Shown: in pieces, positions 12,634 to 58,013 of the stretch
Layout: the number at the start of each line of letters is the position of its first letter
Position numbering within the stretch: position 1 is the stretch's first letter
Source of the DNA: Minisyncoccota bacterium
Lineage (GTDB): Bacteria; Patescibacteriota; Minisyncoccia; Phycocordibacterales; SBAW01
Length of the DNA stretch: 64,000 nucleotides
Direction of reading: 5' to 3'
Assembly (NCBI GenBank): GCA_035546575.1
Contig: DASZWN010000002.1
Coordinates: forward strand, 257,056-321,055
Position numbers and translations under genes: made by a program
Notes under the pieces: generated by a model
Told to the model about the DNA's origin: nothing
What the model saw: the letters and a program-made list of their open reading frames with translations, nothing else
Databases searched by the model: none

Positions 12634-13494
12634 ATGACTTTCCCTCTGCGACAACTAGTATTTAATGACTTTCCTGAACTACTAAAGGAAATTCCTGACG
12701 CTCCGAGCACGCTCTGGTATCGCGGAGAAATGCCTCCAAAAGAGTACAAGATGCTGTGCGTTGTCGGCTCGCGCGCCACTACTCCCTACGGCAAACGTAT
12801 GTGCCAAAAACTTATTGCAGGTTTAGCCGGACAGCCAATCGCAATCATCTCCGGCATGGCGCTTGGGATCGACAGCGAGGCCCACAATGCCGCGATGGAC
12901 GTCGGGCTGCCCACCGTTGCAGTGCTCCCCTCGTCGTGCGACGAGAAGAGCCTCTACCCTTCTACCAATAAAGCGCTCGCGCAACGGATTCTGAGTCGCG
13001 GCGGAGCGCTCCTGAGCGAGACAAAAGGCCCATACAAAGCGATGCTGCACGACTTTGCAAAACGCAATCGCATCGGCGCGGGCATGTCGCTTGTGACACT
13101 TATCATCGAAGCGGGAGAGAAATCGGGTACTTTGATTACCGCGCGCCTTGCACTCGATTACAATCGCGAGGTACTTGCGGTGCCGCACGAGATCGGCCGC
13201 GAGACTGGAGCAGGTGTTAATGCACTGATCCGTGAAGGGGCAACCCTGGTGCGAAACTCCGAGGACGTGCTCCAAGCGCTTGGGCTCAAAGCCGCAGAGC
13301 CCGAGCAAGGCACGCTCCCAACCGATCTAACAGAGGTGGAAATAAAAGTCTTAACTGCACTAACCGAAGCGCTCGTTAAAGACGAAGTAATCGAGTATGC
13401 CGAGGTCTCCGCACAAGAAGCAAACATCGCGCTCTCCTCGCTCCTCATACGCGGCCTCATAACCGAGCGTCTTGGCAAAATTGAGCGCGTGTAG
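12634..13494 (+). CDS. dprA: DNA processing protein DprA/Smf
   Basis: VVGSRATTPYG...GIDSEAHNAA...GTLITA. Confidence 0.85.
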   Translation: MTFPLRQLVFNDFPELLKEIPDAPSTLWYRGEMPPKEYKMLCVVGSRATTPYGKRMCQKLIAGLAGQPIAIISGMALGIDSEAHNAAMDVGLPTVAVLPSSCDEKSLYPSTNKALAQRILSRGGALLSETKGPYKAMLHDFAKRNRIGAGMSLVTLIIEAGEKSGTLITARLALDYNREVLAVPHEIGRETGAGVNALIREGATLVRNSEDVLQALGLKAAEPEQGTLPTDLTEVEIKVLTALTEALVKDEVIEYAEVSAQEANIALSSLLIRGLITERLGKIERV

Positions 13495-13518: not shown

Positions 13519-15756
13519 ATGAAGTTGGTGATCGTTGAGTCGCCCGCTAAGGCGAAGACTATTGAGAAGTACCTTAACGATATTGTTAAGGATGGGCGCC
13601 TGCCTGCCGGTAGGCAGGACTTTGTCGTGCGCGCCTCGGTGGGCCATGTCCGCGATCTTCCGAAGTCTAATAAAAAAGCGATCGATATTCCTGCCGGCTT
13701 TGTGCCGCACTACGAGGTTGTGGCAGGCAAGATGAAGGTGATCGACGAGTTAAAAACGCTCGCTAAAAAAGCCGACGAGGTAATACTCGCGACCGACCCC
13801 GACCGCGAGGGCGAGGCTATTGCCTGGCACATTGGCCAGGAACTCAAGCTCAAAAAGCCGGAGCGCATCGTGTTCCACGAGATCACCAAAGAGGCTATCG
13901 CCGAGGCGCTTGCTAACCCGCGTCAGATCGACGAGCACTTGCGTTATGCACAAGAGGCACGCCGCGTGCTCGACCGCCTGGTGGGCTACGACCTCTCGGG
14001 GCTTATCTGGAAGAAGGTTCGATACGGGCTCTCCGCAGGGCGCGTACAATCGCCGGCTTTGCGCATCATTATGGAGCGCGAGCGCGAGATCCGCGCATTT
14101 ATCCCTGAGACCTACTGGGTTATTACCGCACAGACCCAGACCGAGCATAAAGATGCACTCAACCTCACCTGTGTTGAGGAGCCGCGCGACAAAAAACAAG
14201 TCGACCATATTATCGAGGCGGTTAAAAAAGACGGGCTTACTGTCGCCGACGTAACCGAGAGCGAAATGAAGCGGGCTCCAAGAGCGCCATTTACCACCTC
14301 CACCCTCCAGCAGGCGGCATCAACGCGCCTTGGCTTCTCCCCCTCCAACACCATGCGTATTGCGCAAAAACTCTACGAAGCCGGCCACATTACCTACATG
14401 CGCACCGACTCGGTAAACCTTGGCGCTCCTGCACGCGCAGCACTGCTTGCTCATGTTGAGAAAAAGTACGGCAAAGAGTACGTGCAGCCGCATACATTTG
14501 CGACAAAATCTAAAAATGCGCAGGAGGCTCATGAAGCAGTGCGCCCGACTCATATAGAAAAGGAGTCGGTTGGCACAACGCCCGAACAAAAGAAGCTCTA
14601 TGAGCTGATTTGGGCCCGCACGCTCGCATCGCAAATGGCTGATGCAAAACTGCTCAAGACAAAAATAATTGCCGAGACAAAAGATGCAAAGGTTCCGCAA
14701 TTTGCAGCCAATGGATCGCGCGTGATGTTTGACGGCTGGCTGCGTGCCGACCCTGCAGCACGCGGCGAAGATGTCGAGCTGCCAAAAGTCTCTCCAAAAG
14801 AAACACTCGATGTTAAAGATGTTTCTGCGGAGGAAAAGGCTACCACCCCACCGCAGCGCTACTCCGAGGCCGGGCTGATCAAAGAGCTCGAGAAGCGCGG
14901 TATCGGCCGGCCGTCAACGTACGCAAGCATCATGAAGACGCTCCAAGACCGCGGCTACGTACTCAAGGAAGGGCGCTCGCTAATACCTACCGACACCGGC
15001 GATGTGGTCTCAACATTCCTTGAAGACAACTTCCCTACCTATATCTCGGATACGTTTACTGCAGAGATGGAAGACGAGCTCGACGAAATTGCTCTTGGCA
15101 AACGCGAGTATGCAAAGACGCTCGGCGACTTCTATACCCCGTTTCTTAAAGACGTAAAACTCAAAGACAAAGAAGCCGGTAAGATTACCGATCTGGGGCC
15201 GGCACCAAAAGAGTATACCTGCCCCATATGCGGCAGCCCGATGGTGTTTAAGCTCTCTCGCCAGGGCAAATTTATGTCTTGCTCGCGCTTCCCCGACTGT
15301 TTGGGTGCTCGTACAGAAACCGGCGAGGTAATCTCAAACGAGCCGCCAAAACCAATCGGCACGTATCCGGAAAATGGCGAACCTATTTATGTGCTCACCG
15401 GCCGCTTTGGCCCTTATGTGCAAGTTGGCGAAACTCCGACCGGCAAAGGCTCAAAGTCTAAAAACAAACCCAAACGCGGCTCAATTCCTAAAGAAAAAAT
15501 CCCTGAGGAGGTGACTCTCGAAGATGCGCTTAAATATTTGAGCCTCCCGCGTGTACTTGGCAAACATCCGGACACCGAAGAAACTATTACCGCCAACATC
15601 GGCCGCTTCGGTCCCTACATTGCGCACAACACCAAACCAAAGCCGGACTTCCGCTCGCTAAAAACCGACGACGTATATGCAATAACGCTTGAAAGAGCCC
15701 TCGAAATCTTAAGCGAAGAAAAGAAGCGCCGCGGGTTTACAAAGAAAGCAAAATAA
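13519..15756 (+). CDS. topA: DNA topoisomerase I, with an in-frame 20 bp palindrome (LPAGRQ) in the TOPRIM N-terminus
   Basis: KLVIVESPAKAKTIEKYL, SVGHVRDLP, C-terminal Zn ribbons. Confidence 0.95.
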   Translation: MKLVIVESPAKAKTIEKYLNDIVKDGRLPAGRQDFVVRASVGHVRDLPKSNKKAIDIPAGFVPHYEVVAGKMKVIDELKTLAKKADEVILATDPDREGEAIAWHIGQELKLKKPERIVFHEITKEAIAEALANPRQIDEHLRYAQEARRVLDRLVGYDLSGLIWKKVRYGLSAGRVQSPALRIIMEREREIRAFIPETYWVITAQTQTEHKDALNLTCVEEPRDKKQVDHIIEAVKKDGLTVADVTESEMKRAPRAPFTTSTLQQAASTRLGFSPSNTMRIAQKLYEAGHITYMRTDSVNLGAPARAALLAHVEKKYGKEYVQPHTFATKSKNAQEAHEAVRPTHIEKESVGTTPEQKKLYELIWARTLASQMADAKLLKTKIIAETKDAKVPQFAANGSRVMFDGWLRADPAARGEDVELPKVSPKETLDVKDVSAEEKATTPPQRYSEAGLIKELEKRGIGRPSTYASIMKTLQDRGYVLKEGRSLIPTDTGDVVSTFLEDNFPTYISDTFTAEMEDELDEIALGKREYAKTLGDFYTPFLKDVKLKDKEAGKITDLGPAPKEYTCPICGSPMVFKLSRQGKFMSCSRFPDCLGARTETGEVISNEPPKPIGTYPENGEPIYVLTGRFGPYVQVGETPTGKGSKSKNKPKRGSIPKEKIPEEVTLEDALKYLSLPRVLGKHPDTEETITANIGRFGPYIAHNTKPKPDFRSLKTDDVYAITLERALEILSEEKKRRGFTKKAK
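13599..13618. repeat. 20 bp palindromic element A (CCTGCCTGCCGGTAGGCAGG), in frame in topA
   Basis: identical or near-identical copies at 19515, 21599, 42963, 45769, 47486 (21 bp variant), 49072 and 52984. Confidence 0.9.
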
Positions 15757-19499: not shown

Positions 19500-19558
19500 G
19501 CCGGAGTGGCGGAACCTGCCTGCCGGCAGGCAGGTTGGTATACGCGCACGACTCAAAA
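19500..19558 (+). repeat. duplicated 5' half of tRNA-Leu(CAA) (nt 1-38), interrupted by the 20 bp palindrome A
   Basis: GCCGGAGTGGCGGAA-[CCTGCCTGCCGGCAGGCAGG]-TTGGTATACGCGCACGACTCAAAA is identical to 19803-19843 apart from the insertion. Confidence 0.85.
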
Positions 19559-19568
19559 GAGACGATGT

Positions 19569-19802
19569 ATGTATTACGTATACGCCATCAAAAGTAGCCT
19601 TAGAAACTATCTGTACGTCGGCCTAACTGCGGATATTGAGAGACGATTAAGTGAGCACAATAAAGGCCGAAATAAAACGACTCGACCATATAGACCATTT
19701 ACGCTAGTGTATAGCGAGGCCTTGTCGGATAGAAGGTCGGCAAGGAGTAGAGAAAAATACCTTAAATCAGGAGTTGGTAAGGAATTCCTGAAAAATAAAT
19801 AA
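19569..19802 (+). CDS. small GIY-YIG nuclease-domain protein (COG2827/YhbQ-like)
   Basis: MYYVYAIKSS...YVGLTADIERRLSEHNKG; sits between the duplicated tRNA half and the intact tRNA-Leu. Confidence 0.7.
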   Translation: MYYVYAIKSSLRNYLYVGLTADIERRLSEHNKGRNKTTRPYRPFTLVYSEALSDRRSARSREKYLKSGVGKEFLKNK

Positions 19803-19884
19803 GCCGGAGTGGCGGAATTGGTATACGCGCACGACTCAAAATCGTGTCTCGCAAGGGATGGGAGTTCGACTCTCCCCTCCGGCA
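19803..19884 (+). tRNA. tRNA-Leu(CAA)
   Basis: long variable arm, anticodon loop CTCAAAA, T-loop GTTCGACTC. Confidence 0.8.
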
Positions 19885-19949
19885 CAACGTTTATTTTCCA
19901 CTAGTTTATGATATTGTGCTGCTAGCTCGAACCTTGAAGGAGATATTCC

Positions 19950-42347: not shown

Positions 42348-44846
42348 CTATAAGCAGACAAAGCTTGCTATTGCATCCCCGTCGCGGAGCTTCATTATGC
42401 GTACGCCTTGGGTTGAACGGCTGAGAGATGGGATTTCTACAAGGCCGGTGCGGATCACTTGGCCTTTTTTGGACATTACTACCATCTCGTCTTCGCCTAC
42501 GCCTTCTTCTTTAGACACTACTCTTGCGGCAACAAGCGGGCCTGTTTTTGGAGTCACCTTTACCGTCTTGATGCCCGAGCCGCCGCGGTTTTGTGTTTTA
42601 TATTCCGAGACCGGAGTTGTCTTGCCGTAGCCGTTGCGCGAGACAACAAGCACTTCGAGGTCCTTGCGGCCCTTGGGCACCACATCGGCGCCCACGATGG
42701 TGTCGCCGCCCGATAGCTTCATGCCGCGCACGCCGCCGGCACCGCGACCCATCGCGCGAATGTCGCTTTCTTTAAACCGGATCGACTGCCCTTTTGCCGA
42801 GGAGAGGAATATCTCGTCGCCCTTTTCCACAAGCAGTGCCGCAATGAGCTCGTCGCCCTTTTGGAGCTTGATAGCGATGAGGCCGCTGCGGCGCACATCG
42901 TGGAAACTTGCTGCATCTACCTTCTTAGCGACACCCTGCTTGGTGATCATATAGAGGAACTCCTGCCTACCGGCAGGCAGGTCTCCCCTCCCTTTTTCTA
43001 CTTTACGCATCGGCAAAACGCTGGAGACCTTCTCGGTGTCGGTGAGTGAGAGGAAGTTAACTATCGCCTTGCCCTTGGTCGAGCGTTTGCCCTCCGGGAT
43101 ATCATAGAACTTGAGCTGGTACGCCTTGCCCACATCGGTAAAGAAGAGCAGGTCGCTATGGGTCGAGGTCGTGAGGAATGTCGTTACAAAGTCTTCCTCT
43201 TTTGTGTCGAGGTCTATCACGCCGACACCCCCGCGCTTTTGGCGGCGGAACTCGTCGGGGTTCGTGCGCTTTACGTAGCCGCCTTGGGTGAGCACGAGCA
43301 CAGCCTCCTCGTCGGGTACGAGGTCTTCGAGGTTGATCACTCCTGCGGCGCCCTTCATCACCTTGGTGTTGCGGTCGTCGCCGTACTTCTCGACGATTGT
43401 CTGGATCTCGGTCTTGATAACCGTCATCATCTTTTTCTCCGATGCCAAGAGCGAGGTAAGCTCCTCTATGAGCGCCTGAACCTCTTTCAATTCGTCCTCG
43501 ATCTTTTTGCGCTCAAGGTTTGCGAGCTTTTGGAGGCGCATCTCAAGAATAGCGGTAGCCTGGAGCTCGCTAAACTTGAACTTTTTCATCAGGTTGGCGT
43601 GCGCGTCCTGTACATCTTTCGATGCACGGATTGTTTTGATGATCTCGTCGATGATATCGAGCGCCTTTTTGAGGCCGAGCAAAATGTGCTCACGCGCCTG
43701 CGCGCCCTTAAGGTCAAACTCGGTGCGGCGGCGCACCACCTCCTGGCGATGCTTGATAAACTCTTGGAGAATCCCTTTGAGGCTGAGCGTTTGCGGCACG
43801 CCGTCTACCAGCACCACCATGTTGAAATGGAAGGTGTCCTCAAGCGCGGTGTGCTTGTAAAGATAGTTGAGCACCTTCTGCGGGTGTGCACCTTGTTTAA
43901 GCTCCACCACGACGCGGATGTCTTTGGTGGACTCGTCGCGCAGGCCGCGGATACCCTCGAGCTTTTTGTCGCGCACCAGGTCGGCGATGCGCATGATCAT
44001 GTCGGCCTTGTTAACACGATACGGGATAGAGGTAATCACAATCTGGAAGTTCCCCTTTTTGTCCTCGACAATCTCGGCTACGCCGCGCACCACAACGCCG
44101 CCTTTGCCGGTGGTGTAGGCATGCAATAGATCTTTTTTATTAAATGCGACTGCGCCAACCGGGAAGTCCGGCCCCGTGATGTGCTGCATCAGGTCCTCAA
44201 CCGTTGCGTCTTTGTTTTCTATCAAATGTATGAGCGCGTTTGAGACTTCGGTGAGGTTATGCGGCGGGATCGAGGTTGCCATGCCCACCGCGATGCCGAG
44301 CGTGCCGTTGAGCAAAATGTTTGGCACTGCGGCCGGCAACACCTCGGGCTCCTTAAGGCTGCCGTCGTAGTTGGGGCGCCAGTCGATGGTCTCCTTTTCG
44401 ATATCGCCCAGCAATTGTTCCGCCATGCGCGACATTTTTGCCTCGGTGTAGCGCATTGCCGCGGCCGAGTCGCCGTCGATAGAGCCAAAGTTACCTTGGC
44501 CGAGCACCAGCGGATAGCGCATCGAAAACTCTTGCGCCATTTTTACCATCGCGTCGTACACGGAAGCGTCGCCATGCGGGTGATACTTGCCGAGCACATC
44601 GCCCACCACCAGTGCCGACTTGCGGAAGCGCGCCGAGGGTGTGAGCCCCAAGCGATGCATGGTGTAGAGGATGCGACGGTGCACCGGCTTGAGTCCGTCG
44701 CGCACGTCGGGGAGCGCGCGATCGGTAATCACGCTCATTGCGTAGTCGATAAAGCTCTCGCGCATCTCAGCCGAGATGTTGCGACCTACGATGCCGGTGC
44801 CGCCGTCTGGTCGCGGTTCTTTTTTAATTTCGTCTTGATCAGCCAT
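42348..44846 (-). CDS. gyrA: DNA gyrase subunit A, with an in-frame palindrome A (GDLPAGRQE) in the C-terminal domain
   Basis: catalytic-Tyr region AAMRYTE, QRR loop; full length. Confidence 0.95.
42963..42982. repeat. palindrome A copy (inside gyrA)
   Basis: CCTGCCTACCGGCAGGCAGG. Confidence 0.9.
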
Positions 44847-45101: not shown

Positions 45102-45734
45102 TTAGACGGAGAGCACAATGATCTCGCCCTCTTTGCCGTCGAGATCTTTTTTCTTGACGGTGAGCTTGTCGACTGGCTGTACGTCCTCGGCACCAGCCTC
45201 TTTTAGAAACGCCTTGAGCGCATCTTTGCCGCCCATGTCGCCATAGTGCATCGGAACAATTGCCTTCGGCTCCAATTGTACCGCAAGCTTGTAGGCAGCC
45301 CCGTGGTCAAGCACGCCATCGCCACCTACCGGCAAGAAAAGAATATCGATATTGTCGAGCTCTTGCTTTGCTGCCTGCGGCAACTCCGGCTTGGAGAGCG
45401 CTCCCAAAAAACAGAGGTTCATACCCTCGAGGGCCACACTATATATAGTATTAATCGACGGTGAGCCGCCATACTCGCTCTCTGCACCAAAGCCGCGTAC
45501 CGCAACACCCTTTACCTCGTACTCGCCGGGGCCGGTGATTGCAAACGGCTCGCGGTCGCCAAAAGCGGCATTTTCGATGCCGTTAAAGTCCTCGTGATCG
45601 GTCGAGACGAGCGCGATGTCGGAGCCAAACTTAGACGTTTTGAGGCTGGAATCGCGAGAGGGAGGGTTGAAAGCGAGCGTCAAATCACCCTGCGAAATCT
45701 TAAAACATTCGCCCCCCATGTAGCTGATAACCAT
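45102..45734 (-). CDS. metallo-beta-lactamase-fold hydrolase
   Basis: MBL-fold UPF0173-like core. Confidence 0.75.
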   Translation of the reverse strand: MVISYMGGECFKISQGDLTLAFNPPSRDSSLKTSKFGSDIALVSTDHEDFNGIENAAFGDREPFAITGPGEYEVKGVAVRGFGAESEYGGSPSINTIYSVALEGMNLCFLGALSKPELPQAAKQELDNIDILFLPVGGDGVLDHGAAYKLAVQLEPKAIVPMHYGDMGGKDALKAFLKEAGAEDVQPVDKLTVKKKDLDGKEGEIIVLSV

Positions 45735-45768: not shown

Positions 45769-45788
45769 CCTGCCTACCGGCAGGCAGG
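45769..45788. repeat. palindrome A copy (intergenic)
   Basis: CCTGCCTACCGGCAGGCAGG. Confidence 0.9.
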
Positions 45789-45955
45789 CGCCAAAAATTG
45801 AGTGAAAATGAACGCTACCGGTGTAGGGGATTTCTTTTGTTGAAAAAATTATGTGCGGCGATATAGTTGGTAGATGCCCTATAAAACTGACTTTGGTCAG
45901 AAAAGGGACGATACAAGTTCTCGACAACTAAAACTCGTTTAGGGAGACCTCTTAG

Positions 45956-46279
45956 ATGCGACGATTGCTACTCGGCCTTTTCGCCGACGATTCGCTTACC
46001 GAGCCCCCGCACTTTTGCTCTGTGGGGCCGTACGACCCAAAGGAACGCCACCCCGAGGAGCGGGCGGCGTTCAATGCAGTACATGGGGGCAAGAAGCTTC
46101 CGGTATTTTATCAGCCTGATGAGCGGCATGACGACCACGCGCCCAAGCAACAGCAACAGCAGGGCGAGATGGGCTCAACTGGCCAAGGAGACGCTGGTCT
46201 CGGGGATTTACCCGACGACTCGCGTTCATTTGACCGGCCGCGGCAGGTCATGGACGGCGGCTTCGTTCCCGATTTGTAG
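45956..46279 (+). CDS. acidic Gln/Asp-rich hypothetical protein with its own promoter and terminator
   Basis: putative promoter TTGAAA-16-TATAGT about 110 nt upstream, RBS AGGGAGA, terminator 46296-46338. Confidence 0.4.
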   Translation: MRRLLLGLFADDSLTEPPHFCSVGPYDPKERHPEERAAFNAVHGGKKLPVFYQPDERHDDHAPKQQQQQGEMGSTGQGDAGLGDLPDDSRSFDRPRQVMDGGFVPDL

Positions 46280-46406
46280 GGAATAGCTCGATTTCGGCCC
46301 CACCGGCGTTTTGCGTCGGTGGGGCTTCACTCTTTTTACATACCGCATGTGAAGCGCCAAAAAAGCCTTGTGTATAGGCTTATTTTTGTATATCTGCTTA
46401 TTTGAC

Positions 46407-46435
46407 TTGACAAGAATAGTGGGTTGGTATATACT
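46407..46435 (+). promoter_or_regulatory. consensus sigma70-type promoter (TTGACA, 17 nt spacer, TATACT)
   Basis: read directly; followed by an RBS and a 41-codon ORF at 46509. Confidence 0.6.
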
Positions 46436-46508
46436 TGCTATTACCAATCGGCTCGAAAGTTATGCCGTTTGGGTGAACGTCCCTCGAAGAAACCAGAAGG
46501 AGATATCG

Positions 46509-46634
46509 ATGCGCAAGCATCTCATCAATTTTTCCCCAGGTCACGACTTCGGCCACTTGAAAAGCTGGATGTTCTCCACCACGTCGATCGCCGGCGTCGG
46601 CGCCGCCTCGGTACCGTCGTCCCAGGCAGCCTGA
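46509..46634 (+). CDS. 41 aa small ORF (MRKHLINFSPGHDFGHLKSWMF...) with its own promoter, then about 70 nt of untranslated sequence and a terminator; could be a leader peptide or part of an ncRNA
   Basis: RBS AGGAGA 6 nt upstream; terminator at 46701-46745. Confidence 0.3.
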   Translation: MRKHLINFSPGHDFGHLKSWMFSTTSIAGVGAASVPSSQAA

Positions 46635-46775
46635 CCGGAAGCGGCTAGGCCTTCTAGCCATCGCTTGACCGCGAAAATTTGAAGGTATGTGCTAACCCCC
46701 GACCCCCCCAAAGCTAACGCTGCGGGGGGTCACTGCTTTTTTATATAGAGGTTCCAGGCCTGTTTACAACACTGA

Positions 46776-46804
46776 TTGACCAATCTGTCCCCTTCATGTA
46801 GATT
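46776..46804 (+). promoter_or_regulatory. sigma70-like promoter (TTGACC, 17 nt spacer, TAGATT)
   Basis: read directly; upstream of the secreted-protein gene. Confidence 0.45.
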
Positions 46805-46886
46805 TTGCTGGTGCTCCAGTAACTAGTTTTGCTTTTCTGGAGACGACTTGTTTCTTCAACATCTAGAAAGAGGAGGAATACCGGGC

Positions 46887-47243
46887 ATGACCTTGAAAGG
46901 GTTCATGTTGGGAGCTGCCGCGGCTTTTGCCGTAGCTAGCTCTGCTTTCGCCGCGGATACCGCTCATCACGGGACTGGTCCCCCGGCAATCGTCGGGCAT
47001 GCCCTGAAGGATATCCTCGCAGCGGACATCTTCCCCGCGATCAACGTCGACCATGTCATCTCTCTGGCCATCAAGGAAACGAAGCTCGGCTCGATGTCGG
47101 TCGCCGAAGTCTTCCTGTCCCCGGTCGGTCACGCCCCGCCGCTCATCGTCGCGCTCGAAACTGACGATGGTCTCGGCATGTACCTCGAAGGCGACAACGG
47201 CCTCGACCTCAAGAAGGAGCTCGGCCTCACGGCCCTCTCCTGA
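46887..47243 (+). CDS. small secreted protein (118 aa)
   Basis: very strong SD AAAGAGGAGGAAT; signal peptide MTLKGFMLGAAAAFAVASSAFA/AD; terminator at 47281-47335. Confidence 0.5.
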   Translation: MTLKGFMLGAAAAFAVASSAFAADTAHHGTGPPAIVGHALKDILAADIFPAINVDHVISLAIKETKLGSMSVAEVFLSPVGHAPPLIVALETDDGLGMYLEGDNGLDLKKELGLTALS

Positions 47244-47456
47244 TGTAAAGCCCGCGCTCGGCTAAAAGAGCGCAAAAATCCCTCGGCACCATTTGAGCTT
47301 CCCTCTTACGGTGCCGAGGGTATTTCTTTTTATATAATTGCCTTTTAAAACGTTCTGAGGTATAGTCTTTGGTAATAAAGAGCAGGTCGCCCTTTATAAA
47401 AAACACAGCGCATAGGAGTAAATCCCGAACGGGACCCCTATCGTACAAAACAATAT

Positions 47457-48599
47457 ATGGCAAAAACAAAAGAAGCCGTCTTAGACCTGCCTACCGGACA
47501 GGCAGGCGCGGCCGATATCGCAACTACCGAAGCAGTCGCAACCCTCATGCAGGGTCTTTCTGAGCGTGCACCAGAGCCGCCTAAGGAGGGCGATATTGTC
47601 GAGGGTCCGGTCATTGCTCTTGACCGCGCAAAGCTCTACATCGACCTGCCTCCGTTTGGTACCGGCGTAATCTTTGGCCGCGAGTACCTCAACGCGCGAG
47701 AGGTTATCAAGCGCACCAATGTCGGCGACCGCATCGCTGCAAAGGTTATCTCGGTCGACAGTAAAGAGGGCTATATCGAACTTTCTCTCAAAGAGGCTCG
47801 CCAGGCTATTATTTGGGCCGAGGCAGAGTCTGCAGTTAAAGAAAAACGCTTGGTTGAGATCCTCGTTAAAGAGGCAAACAAGGGCGGTCTTATTTTGGAG
47901 TGGCAAGGTATCGCCGGCTTCCTCCCGGCATCTCAGCTCAAGGCTGAGCACTACCCGCGCGTACTCGACGGCGACAAAGACAAGATCCTCGACGAGCTGC
48001 GCAAGCTTGTTGGCACCAAGTTGATGGTCTCTATCATCTCGGCAACTCCTAAGGAGGGCAAACTTATCTTCAGCGAGAAGGGCGTCGACGACAAAGAAAA
48101 GAAGCAGCTCATCGCGTCGTACCAGGTTGGCGACATTGTCGAGGGCGAGATCACCGGCATGGTGGACTTTGGCGCCTTTGTAAAACTTGAGGAGGGTCTC
48201 GAGGGCTTGGTCCATATTTCCGAAATTGACTGGGGCTTAGTAGACGATCCTCGCCACTTCTTTAAGGTGGGCGACAAGGTAAAAGTGAAAATAATTGATA
48301 TTAAAGACGGCAAGATCTCCCTTTCTGCAAAACAGCTTAAGGAAAACCCTTGGCAGACTGCTATCACCAAGTACAACAAGGGCGACAAGGTTGAGGGCGT
48401 GGTTATCAAGTTTAACAAGCACGGCGCGCTCGCCTCGATTGAGGAAGGCATTGCAGGTTTGGTACACGTGAGCGAGTTCGGCAGCGAGGAAAAGCTCCGC
48501 TCAAGCCTCGAGCTCGGCAAGCGCTATCCATTTACCATTTCCCTCTTTGAGCCAAAAGAGATGCGCATGGCGCTCGCCTTTGCGGGAGATAAGAAGTAG
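47457..48599 (+). CDS. rpsA: 30S ribosomal protein S1 (four S1 domains), with a 21 bp variant of palindrome A in the N-terminal extension (LPTGQAG)
   Basis: repeated S1 motifs (GDIVEG...V..F...G..G..HISE). Confidence 0.9.
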   Translation: MAKTKEAVLDLPTGQAGAADIATTEAVATLMQGLSERAPEPPKEGDIVEGPVIALDRAKLYIDLPPFGTGVIFGREYLNAREVIKRTNVGDRIAAKVISVDSKEGYIELSLKEARQAIIWAEAESAVKEKRLVEILVKEANKGGLILEWQGIAGFLPASQLKAEHYPRVLDGDKDKILDELRKLVGTKLMVSIISATPKEGKLIFSEKGVDDKEKKQLIASYQVGDIVEGEITGMVDFGAFVKLEEGLEGLVHISEIDWGLVDDPRHFFKVGDKVKVKIIDIKDGKISLSAKQLKENPWQTAITKYNKGDKVEGVVIKFNKHGALASIEEGIAGLVHVSEFGSEEKLRSSLELGKRYPFTISLFEPKEMRMALAFAGDKK

Positions 48600-48631: not shown

Positions 48632-49204
48632 CTACTTTGAGTGTATCTGCATCATCGCGGCATCTACACCTTCTTTCAGGATTATTTCCAGCGCCTCGCT
48701 CACTACTTTTTTTGCTTTTTTGAGCTTTTCTTGCTCTGCGGGTTTAAATTTGCCGAGTACAAAGTCCACTATCTTCTCGGCATCAGGCCGCTTGAGCTTG
48801 CCCGAGGGAGTTGTAGGGCTGATCCCCACACGCACACGCACAAAGTCCTGCGTCTTGAGCGCTTTAATCACCGACTTAACGCCGTTATGGCCGCCTGCGC
48901 TGGAGCCAAACGAGATTTTGACTCTCCCCAGCGGCAAATCGAGCTCATCATGCACCACAATAAGCCTCTGCGCAGCGGCTTTAGAGGGCACCATCTTTTT
49001 TAAAGGGCCGCCAGAGTTGTTCATATATACATCGGGCGTTATAAGCGTGGCTTTAACGCCAAACAGGCTTCCCTGCCTACCGGCAGGCAGGCCTTTTTCG
49101 CCCTCTTTCTTCTCTATATCGCGCAAAAAGTCGCGACCGATGTTGTGGCGCGTGCCTACGTACTCTTCATCTGGATTTCCGAGGCCTGCTACTACCCATT
49201 GCAT
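48632..49204 (-). CDS. pth: peptidyl-tRNA hydrolase, with an in-frame palindrome A (KGLPAGRQGS)
   Basis: GLGNPDEEYVGTRHNIG, HDELDLPLG, GGHNG. Confidence 0.9.
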   Translation of the reverse strand: MQWVVAGLGNPDEEYVGTRHNIGRDFLRDIEKKEGEKGLPAGRQGSLFGVKATLITPDVYMNNSGGPLKKMVPSKAAAQRLIVVHDELDLPLGRVKISFGSSAGGHNGVKSVIKALKTQDFVRVRVGISPTTPSGKLKRPDAEKIVDFVLGKFKPAEQEKLKKAKKVVSEALEIILKEGVDAAMMQIHSK

Positions 49205-52953: not shown

Positions 52954-52983
52954 TAGACAGAACAAAAGAGTAAAAAGTCAAAC

Positions 52984-53003
52984 CCTGCCTGCCGGCAGGC
53001 AGG
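52984..53003. repeat. palindrome A copy (intergenic; extended 28 bp perfect palindrome AAACCCTGCCTGCCGGCAGGCAGGGTTT)
   Basis: read directly. Confidence 0.9.
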
Positions 53004-53152
53004 GTTTGCATTATAGGCAGGGGTGGTATACTTCTACAACTGCTCTTCTATAGTCTCCTCACGTGTTACAGCGGTGCAAAGAGCAATCTTTGCATCTCAC
53101 CTCGTGCGCGACTATACTAGGCGGCGCTACTTACCAAACACTTTTACACTTT

Positions 53153-57853: not shown

Positions 57854-57925
57854 TGACCCTACCGGGAATCGAACCCGGATTAACGGCTTGAAAAGCCGGC
57901 GTCCTAACCGTTAGACGATAGGGCC
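57854..57925 (-). tRNA. tRNA-Glu(TTC)
   Basis: GGCCCTA...TAGGGTCA; anticodon loop TTTTCAA; T-loop GGTTCGATTCC. Confidence 0.65.
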
Positions 57926-57926
57926 G

Positions 57927-58013
57927 CGGAGAGGGAGAGATTCGAACTCTCGATCCAGTTTCCCAGATGCCGGTTTTCGAAACCGGTGCCTTCGACCACT
58001 CAGCCACCTCTCC
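57927..58013 (-). tRNA. tRNA-Ser(CGA)
   Basis: GGAGAGG acceptor, anticodon loop TTCGAAA, long variable arm, T-loop GAGTTCGAATCTC. Confidence 0.8.

Follow-up and report, generated by a model that had tools for sequence, protein, structure and literature searches.

How does a 20-nt palindrome come to lie inside essential genes, and what carries it there? The question is raised by a 64,000-nt stretch of contig DASZWN010000002.1 from a Minisyncoccota bacterium (the whole stretch analyzed is hereafter called the window), in which the sequence CCTGCCT(G/A)CCGG(C/T)AGGCAGG (hereafter the 20-mer) occurs eight times. The answer reached here is that the 20-mer is a mobile unit of exactly 20 nt, which is inserted without target duplication, is linked to a cassette made of a GIY-YIG nuclease gene and a tRNA gene, has spread across phyla, and is translated when it enters genes. 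We consider that it is probably a selfish hairpin element acting as the DNA partner of mobile mini GIY-YIG genes, with the solitary copies (solos) as by-products.

Precise insertion of a 20-nt unit

Seven of the eight copies are exact 20-mers, recovered by a search with CCTGCCTGCCGGYAGGCAGG allowing up to two mismatches (Table 1), and the eighth is a 21-nt variant with an extra A beside the CCGG centre, found by an indel-tolerant search. The density is one element per 8 kb, and no match was obtained in 100 dinucleotide-preserving shuffles of the window. The over-representation claimed in the initial annotation of this DNA was thus borne out, as were its coordinates except for those of the gyrA copy, which lies at 42962-42981 and not at 42963-42982. 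The window copies are perfect or differ at one position only. Six of them deviate from a perfect palindrome solely at the loop-closing pair, G8/T13 (A8/C13 on the opposite strand), and two are perfect palindromes, including the one between ftsA and ftsZ, which extends to 28 bp as annotated. The single-stranded 20-mer folds into an 8-bp stem with a CCGG loop (-8 kcal/mol). No decayed copies were found in the window, since matches with up to six mismatches were no commoner than in Markov controls.

The copies were compared with those of two syntenic relatives, L176 and L178/L179 (the latter two from one 81-kb contig), whose DNA identity to the window is approximately 82-83% in gyrA and rpsA and 75-77% in pth. 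The stretch L125 (GCA_037975565.1, JBBCBH010007345.1) was left out of the empty-site comparisons; its topA, relA, and parB are split into several short open reading frames (ORFs), suggesting a frameshifted low-quality assembly or pseudogenes. Empty sites were found at the DNA level in L176, L178, or L179 for gyrA, pth, rpsA, topA, miaA, the copies at 45769 and 52984, and the tRNA-Leu locus. The copies are patchy among the relatives: the gyrA copy is present in the window only, and the pth and rpsA copies are also present in L176. No 20-mer was found in 41 kb of syntenic sequence of L178/L179, which is also without the cassette described below.

At the protein level, the insertion in TopA, MiaA, GyrA, Pth, and RpsA is exactly 7 codons relative to the orthologs, and the alignments of the first four proteins confirmed the insertions that had been supposed there. 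In MiaA, 117 of the 120 orthologs read LAQKLxGE(I/V)ISAD, whereas the window protein reads LAQKLR-RLPAGRQ-GEIISAD, with seven residues more. The same insert is present in the ortholog P0009, a decayed form (GLPRRQA) in P0021, and a decayed translated copy in the miaA of the relative L124. Each of the insert-bearing MiaA proteins is closest to an insert-free ortholog; therefore, either the insertion recurred at the same codon or it was repeatedly and precisely lost. The ortholog P0057 has a local duplication, LAQHLRAGAGLAQKVK, in the loop that holds the 20-mer in the window. In Pth, GLPAGRQ is present in the window and P0122 only, and P0123, P0124, and more than 100 others are without exactly these seven residues. 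The seven residues are also missing from TopA of L124 and L179, from GyrA of both relatives, and from RpsA of L178, and a shorter remnant is kept in RpsA of L176.

In the same Pth loop, P0145 has GLPTAKQ, apparently a copy that was inserted in reverse orientation and has since decayed. Other inserts at this loop are a SNIKTGS-type 7-residue insert and a family of approximately 14 residues (the orthologs examined include P0134, P0167, P0172, and P0203). Judged from these alignments, the Pth loop appears to be a hot spot for length change.

The junctions were then read at the nucleotide level. At 45769, the window differs from the empty site GAGCG^TGCAAAA of L178 and L176 by exactly 20 inserted nt, placed at the 5' border of the loop of a small hairpin. 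The GCGCC prefix shared by several copies had been taken as part of an asymmetric unit of approximately 23 bp. This unit does not hold: the prefix is target sequence, because GCG is present in the L178 empty site, and all of the 34 copies in tRNA fragments (see below) are exactly 20 nt. The gyrA junction, GAGA^AGTT, is likewise a clean 20-nt insertion; it is accompanied by a frame-keeping extra base approximately 19 nt upstream, and the six codons between the two changes are frame-shifted (NQKEGE to VEKGRG). At the rpsA site, the window has gained one nt (20 + 1, the A beside the centre) and L176 has lost two (20 - 2, the central CG). For pth, one G is added to the 20-mer in L176; the window is without this G and has an extra C five bases downstream. 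The ftsA-ftsZ copy interrupts the empty site GCAAAC^TTTGAC of L178, the insertion being the 20-mer plus one G. The primary event would be a 20-nt insertion, and the surviving copies in genes would be only those that regained the frame by small changes nearby. Since frame-restoring changes lie near the copies, the element is translated and is neither spliced out nor bypassed by the ribosome; both of these possibilities were ruled out by the indels.

Five of the eight window copies are translated (topA, miaA, gyrA, pth, and rpsA). In topA, miaA, gyrA, and pth, the sense strand carries the CCTGCCTGCCGGTAGGCAGG form in identical phase and the peptide is LPAGRQ, in agreement with the initial annotation; the rpsA copy has the opposite orientation and gives LPTGQAG. 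It had further been stated that the LPAGRQ frame is the only one without a stop codon. In fact, a stop codon is present in just one of the six frames of the 20-mer (CCT GCC TGC CGG TAG), and the other five are open. Therefore, stop avoidance does not explain the LPAGRQ frame, and its constancy is more notable. The constant frame most likely reflects selection, because the remaining open frames bring in cysteine. In other phyla, eight ORFs longer than 300 aa that contain a copy were checked against Pfam, and the six with clear domains (FtsK, a sortilin-like protein, a sugar dehydratase, a Trp/Tyr-tRNA synthetase, a histidine kinase, and a PMT_2 glycosyltransferase) again read LPAGRQ; the two exceptions in other frames are both doubtful ORFs. 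In an AlphaFold model of the window Pth (mean pLDDT 91.7), the insert (residues 38-44) forms a coil between the helix 19-34 and the strand 44-47 and lies within the part modelled with the lowest confidence.

A GIY-YIG gene and a rebuilt tRNA-Leu gene beside the 20-mer

The copy at 19515 was correctly described as lying inside a duplicated 5' part of tRNA-Leu(CAA). The GIY-YIG gene between the duplicated tRNA half and the intact tRNA was missed. The order of the cassette at 19500-19885 is tRNA-Leu(CAA) 1-15, the 20-mer, tRNA 16-39, a 77-aa ORF, and the complete tRNA-Leu(CAA). The ORF matches PF01541 with an E value of 1.1e-18 (67.7 bits; cut-off, 22.6), and the match covers residues 1-68 only. 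Its closest solved proteins are UPF0213 BH0048 and EF2693 (E = 3e-4), followed weakly by I-TevI and SLX1 (E = 0.3 for SLX1). The same locus of L179 holds a plain tRNA-Leu(CAA) without the ORF, the fragment, or the 20-mer. The window thus contains one cassette and seven solos.

Table 1. Copies of the 20-mer in the window and the parts of the GIY-YIG/tRNA-Leu cassette
Feature	Position	Strand	Remark
Solo 20-mer, topA	13599..13618	+ (G..T form on + strand)	Reads (R)LPAGRQ; 7-codon gap in L179, L124, and solved TopA structures
Partial 5' tRNA-Leu(CAA) copy, positions 1-39, split by 20-mer 19515-19534 after position 15 (D loop)	19500..19558	+	Identical to intact tRNA over 15 + 24 nt; exactly 20 nt inserted
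77-aa stand-alone GIY-YIG nuclease gene, intact	19569..19802	+	Pfam PF01541; stop codon abuts intact tRNA
Intact tRNA-Leu(CAA), restored downstream of nuclease gene	19803..19885	+	tRNA call
Solo 20-mer, miaA	21599..21618	+ (G..T form on + strand)	Reads (R)LPAGRQ; empty site in L179
Solo 20-mer, gyrA	42962..42981	- (G..T form on - = sense strand)	Reads (D)LPAGRQ; absent from L176, L178
Solo 20-mer, intergenic, upstream of metallo-beta-lactamase-fold gene (45102-45734, -)	45769..45788	-	Empty in L178, L176
21-nt variant, rpsA codons 10-17	47486..47506	-	Reads LPTGQAG; 18-nt form in L176, empty in L178
Solo 20-mer, pth	49072..49091	- (G..T form on - = sense strand)	Reads (G)LPAGRQ; same site in P0122/L176
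Perfect-palindrome copy between ftsA and ftsZ	52980..53007 (20-mer 52984-53003)	.	Flanks extend to 28 bp; empty in L178

Among the matches listed from the genome scan described below, GIY-YIG genes lie within approximately 20-150 nt of the 20-mer in seven stretches from five phyla (Saccharibacteria, Bacteroidota, WWE3, Bdellovibrionota, and Thermodesulfobacteriota). For a test of this link, six of these GIY-YIG proteins were aligned (A2), and metagenome contigs were scanned for their relatives regardless of the 20-mer. The sample comprised 76 non-redundant GIY-YIG loci, in which the 20-mer was counted with up to three edits. It was present within 130 nt upstream of the start codon in 49 of the 76 loci, within 250 nt after the stop codon in 21, and in at least one flank in 63 (83%). 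The rest of the approximately 194 kb in those loci held 9 matches only, giving a local enrichment of approximately 44-fold. Several of the remaining loci have indel variants of the 20-mer. Only one locus with such a GIY-YIG relative was found in viral contigs.

An intact tRNA was present within 120 nt after the GIY-YIG gene in 41 loci and before the gene in 19, and the neighbouring tRNA was a tRNA-Leu, with any anticodon, in 58 of the 66 tRNA calls. In 34 cases, a partial tRNA copy could be aligned to the intact tRNA of its own locus, and throughout these cases the 20-mer was an exact 20-nt insertion without target duplication. The insertion points are at index 14-15, 21-23, 31-32, 44, and 64-67 of the tRNA, positions that we read as probable cloverleaf loops or stem-loop junctions. 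The distance from the 20-mer to the end of the tRNA homology varies from 4 to 24 nt, which rules out a fixed, I-TevI-like spacing between the 20-mer and the cassette junction. These loci establish a composite mobile unit, consisting of a mini GIY-YIG gene at a tRNA, a rebuilt tRNA, and a leftover tRNA piece broken by the 20-mer.

At some loci, these places hold related palindromes (CCTGCCTGTCGGCAGACAGG and CCTGACTGCCGTCAGGCAGG, for instance), in certain cases along with the main form. In L181-L260 (e.g., L185:1400-1500, L208:1400-1500, L190, L224, and L251), two palindromes are found in some of the partial tRNA copies that accompany GIY-YIG genes, the second being an older or variant form (CCTGCCTGTCGGCAGACAGG, CCTGACTACCGTCAGGTAG, or CCTGCATACCGATTAGGTATG); both are at the usual D-arm positions, as if they had arrived in successive waves. 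In three further stretches (L003:2400-2520, L021:4000-4165, and L044:3600-3790), a partial tRNA bearing the 20-mer lies 30-63 nt from an intact tRNA, leaving no room for a GIY-YIG gene. To judge from this arrangement, these fragments may be what is left of cassettes after loss of the gene.

Spread across phyla and choice of target

Stretches containing CCTGCCTRCCGGYAGGCAGG were sought in a 596-Gb collection with one genome per species. Genome stretches with the 20-mer numbered at least 120 and came from many phyla, compared with a few chance matches expected in 596 Gb by our own estimate. The matches include Bacteroidota, many Patescibacteria lineages, Omnitrophota, Planctomycetota, Bdellovibrionota, Nitrospirota, Chloroflexota, and gamma- and deltaproteobacterial genomes assembled from metagenomes, as well as the cultured isolates Winogradskyella, Olivibacter, Flagellimonas, and Longitalea. 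A further 48 stretches came from viral contigs. The lineage specificity that had been proposed therefore applies to the individual insertions, whose seven residues most orthologs lack, but not to the element itself. When positions 5, 8, 13, and 16 were relaxed to any base, only one extra locus, a viral one, was gained. Therefore, the sequence itself is conserved beyond its fold, and a covarying hairpin family was ruled out. The transition at positions 8/13 is the sole main variation (80 perfect, 46 with one change, and 1 with both, among the matches listed). The 148 ORFs flanking copies elsewhere, checked against Pfam, contained no recurring family or transposase and were unrelated housekeeping genes.

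No fixed flanking repeat indicative of target duplication was found among 185 sites; a 1-nt repeat was mildly enriched (34% versus 25%). Among the matches listed, a purine precedes the element in 49 of the 51 oriented copies, and approximately 5% of the copies are nested in another copy, after its position 9 or 11, which is within the loop. With nested copies excluded, the flanks pair with each other around the insertion point over 6 bp or more at 5.8% of the sites compared with 1.2% of the controls (odds ratio 5, p = 1e-4), whereas flanking 4-bp stems showed no enrichment over the controls. Loop targeting is real but covers a minority of the solos; as a general rule, it is at most partly supported, since the 4-bp stems were not enriched.

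Several copies outside the window lie in other small structures. In the viral contig IMGVR_UViG_3300033148_008720 (L158:2239-2330), ARAGORN called a tRNA-Met of 92 nt in which the 20-mer (2284-2303) makes up the long extra arm; a functional tRNA may thus accommodate a copy in its variable loop. The context in L129 resembles that of L158, and no tRNA was called there. In L070:900-1000, L085:5700-5790, L076:1590-1670, L098:1255-1330, L152, and L153, the 20-mer is inside other short hairpin-like motifs that recur across phyla, for example gtcattgcgaggagcg...cgacgaagcaatc, gtcatcctgag...cgaaggatc, and ctcccctctcctttggagaggg...ggggtgagg. These motifs hint at a wider set of similar small elements.

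Origin of the copies and relation to known systems

The reading that we favour, and regard as probable, is that the 20-mer is a selfish hairpin partnered with the mini GIY-YIG genes. These genes would insert beside tRNA genes, mostly tRNA-Leu genes, rebuild the intact tRNA, and leave a partial copy that would almost always bear the 20-mer. The window lineage would have gained its cassette recently and accumulated solos since. Each solo is a precise 20-nt insertion without duplication, tending to follow a purine and favouring loops, including the loop of the element itself, over chance. Copies in genes would persist only where a change of 1-2 nt nearby or inside restores the frame, and where they read LPAGRQ and are placed in a tolerant protein loop or terminus. 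The GIY-YIG protein, being related to structure-specific nucleases, may cut the stem-loop junctions of transiently single-stranded DNA, after which the hairpin could be ligated in or copied in during repair. Copies outside the cassette would then be side products of the activity that maintains or moves it. SLX1 cuts branched and stem-loop DNA at junctions, and a similar activity would fit insertion at loop edges; the 1-nt errors near the copies are consistent with a repair-based route. The window lineage has the cassette and eight copies, and L178/L179 have neither in 41 kb of matching sequence. The solos are most simply read as by-products of cassette activity. The annotation had also suggested a nuclease recognition site, which points in the right direction insofar as the 20-mer is tightly linked to a GIY-YIG gene.

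More tentatively, and with less confidence than in the partnership itself, the pair could represent a new class of mobile element, in which a structure-specific GIY-YIG nuclease mobilizes a 20-nt hairpin, without target duplication, into single-stranded DNA at stem-loop junctions. By settling in tRNA-Leu genes and restoring them, the nuclease gene would maintain itself, and the pair would have spread over the bacterial phyla, repeatedly adding LPAGRQ to essential proteins. All described mobile DNA units that we know of are larger than a 20-nt hairpin.

Several points weigh against the nuclease as the mover of the hairpin. GIY-YIG enzymes cut DNA, and to our knowledge none joins it; both the cutting and the joining proposed here are predictions. 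Among the matches listed, more than 90% of the scanned copies have no GIY-YIG gene within 8 kb, and one 29.5-kb viral contig has 6 copies and no GIY-YIG gene in the examined parts; therefore, action from a distance must be assumed. Only approximately 6-15% of the solo sites are in a recognizable hairpin loop, and a purely structural target leaves the near-invariant sequence across phyla unexplained. Furthermore, the agreement between cassette and solos comes from one genome pair, and the source genome is represented by 64 kb plus approximately 5 kb.

Some of these points would suit a different account, which we judge possible but rather unlikely: the palindrome may be an independent selfish element, moved by another enzyme (e.g., a Y1/HUH transposase of the RAYT or IS200/IS605 kind) or by template switching in replication, and may simply pile up in neutral, loop-rich dead tRNA fragments. 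Single-strand Y1 transposition typically depends on a hairpin and makes no target duplication, and the 20-mer is likewise a hairpin inserted without duplication. A GTAG arises in its T variant, and self-nested copies lie immediately 5' of this motif; the several tRNA positions and the fragments with two palindromes of different age suggest repeated independent events; and most copies have no nearby GIY-YIG gene. However, passive accumulation can hardly produce the occupancy and local enrichment measured beside GIY-YIG genes in unrelated metagenomes, no transposase was found among the window ORFs tested or the 148 copy-flanking genes elsewhere, and the sequences of repetitive extragenic palindromes (REPs) are species-specific, whereas the 20-mer is identical across phyla. 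It is improbable, in our judgement, that the 20-mer instead serves the cassette or the host, as a nuclease operator, a plug of the cleavage site, a breaker of direct tRNA repeats against deletion, or an RNA hairpin. A 20-bp perfect palindrome located 10-60 nt upstream of a start codon is in the classic operator position, I-TevI represses its own gene via a target-like site, the 20-mer is merely 4-24 nt from the junction of fragment and cassette, and the sense strand carries the RNA form that keeps the G-U pair in four of the five genes. Such a role leaves unexplained the solos in topA, gyrA, miaA, pth, rpsA, FtsK, and a tRNA synthetase; moreover, translated copies decay freely after insertion (miaA of L124 and rpsA of L176), and copies are gained and lost between close relatives. 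A role of the 20-mer within the cassette is compatible with either the partnership with GIY-YIG genes or an independent palindrome.

A DNA-uptake sequence favoured by the competence machinery, which the annotation had offered, has very little to recommend it. The 20-mer is over-represented, palindromic, and partly coding in a fixed frame, a dprA-like ORF (12634-13494) lies beside topA, and a DNA_processg_A gene occupies the homologous position in L124. Nevertheless, every testable copy is a clean insertion relative to an empty site and not a match made by point substitution, the same sequence is present in many unrelated phyla and viral contigs, and the high density in the window coexists with complete absence from 41 kb of a close relative. 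Less probable still, to the point of being negligible, is a sequencing or assembly artefact such as an adapter or a chimera. A short GC-rich palindrome seen mostly in metagenome assemblies may raise this suspicion, but the same insertions occur in independent assemblies of two sequencing runs, cultured isolates have the 20-mer, and frames are kept, with frame-restoring changes and decayed copies present.

The likeness to known palindromic families that had been noted stands for the selfish insertion behaviour and fails for membership, since there is no duplication, the copies are not confined to extragenic DNA, the size differs, and the sequence is not species-specific. Like the Rickettsia palindromic elements (RPEs), the 20-mer is a selfish palindrome found in frame in conserved protein genes, translated, and tolerated in loops; RPEs are located in surface loops, and no enzyme is known to move them. 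Unlike RPEs, which are approximately 100-150 bp and restricted to Rickettsiales, the 20-mer is 20 nt long, occurs in Patescibacteria and many other phyla, and is nuclease-linked. With REPs (20-40 nt) and their RAYT transposases, it shares a short palindrome, many copies, and the lack of target duplication, and the mobility of REPs is attributed to a single enzyme acting in trans. However, REPs are extragenic and species-specific and have a GTAG outside the stem and a RAYT gene, whereas five of the eight window copies are translated, as are copies in other phyla, one and the same 20-mer is shared by many phyla, and its linked gene encodes a GIY-YIG nuclease. No RAYT (Y1 transposase) was found among the ORFs tested, the source genome being represented by approximately 69 kb. 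Miniature inverted-repeat transposable elements are derived from insertion sequences, have terminal inverted repeats around an internal region (50-500 bp in all), and make a target duplication of fixed length; in the present case, the whole element is a 20-nt palindrome, and 34 of 34 insertions are exact and without duplication. DNA-uptake sequences differ in arising by point substitution within one competent lineage, whereas the testable copies of the 20-mer are all insertions and cross phyla.

Among GIY-YIG proteins, the free-standing homing genes (T4 SegB in a tRNA region, and I-TevI) resemble the cassette in that the gene lies beside a conserved gene and is absent from a close relative, here L179. 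I-TevI cleaves at some distance from the insertion site. Unlike the I-TevI/I-BmoI type, which has a DNA-binding domain and approximately 200-250 aa, the 77-aa protein is the catalytic domain alone, and we know of no GIY-YIG homing enzyme that is accompanied by palindromic satellites scattered over the genome or by a rebuilt tRNA and an interrupted partial copy. By sequence, the closest solved relatives are the structure-specific nucleases SLX1 and YhbQ/UPF0213, with a weak match; unlike the present gene, those are repair enzymes and not mobile genes.

The GC clusters and hairpin elements of fungal, sponge, and algal mitochondria, such as the repetitive hairpin-forming elements of sponges (PMC2800124) and the palindromic repeats of Fusarium (PMC7218506), are similar to the 20-mer in being short GC-rich palindromes that spread in the genome, nest in one another, and occasionally enter genes. 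They coexist with homing-endonuclease genes and have no established mechanism. Unlike the 20-mer, they are organellar, have lineage-specific sequences, are usually longer, and have no known specific partner gene.

No description of the sequence, the LPAGRQ peptide, or the cassette was found in the full-text literature, most subscription journals lying outside the coverage, and the pairing of hairpin and nuclease looks like one that has not been described so far. If the partnership is true, it provides a candidate enzyme for short palindromic repeats whose spread has long been unclear (RPEs, mitochondrial GC clusters, and many REP-like sequences), and it would mean that the many "hypothetical" GIY-YIG genes in Patescibacteria, Bacteroidota, and further phyla have a lifestyle that had gone unnoticed. 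The parts are few and small (a 77-aa protein, a 20-nt oligonucleotide, and a tRNA gene), which puts direct testing within reach. The 20-mer also marks recent insertions, which is useful for telling strains apart in metagenomes, and its sites point out positions that tolerate seven residues in TopA, GyrA, MiaA, Pth, RpsA, FtsK, and a tRNA synthetase. Annotators should be aware that LPAGRQ-type peptides and short spurious ORFs derive from it.

A few minor observations concern the window itself. The DNA similarity to both relatives breaks off exactly at the 20-mers at 45769 and 52984 (regions 45789-47318 and 53004-53148). The 1.5 kb after 45788 cannot be aligned to the relatives and contains two ORFs without a Pfam match (45956-46279 and 46848-47243). 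An Rfam scan of the window returned nothing but tRNAs. All six oriented copies change strand between 21.6 and 43 kb. The cumulative GC skew falls steadily to approximately 52 kb and is then flat, with no turning point between 21.6 and 43 kb; the weak minimum at approximately 52 kb, near the ftsA-ftsZ copy, may be origin-like, the signal being too weak to rely on. Finally, tRNA-Glu (57854-57925) and tRNA-Ser (57926-58013), both on the minus strand, adjoin each other without a spacer.

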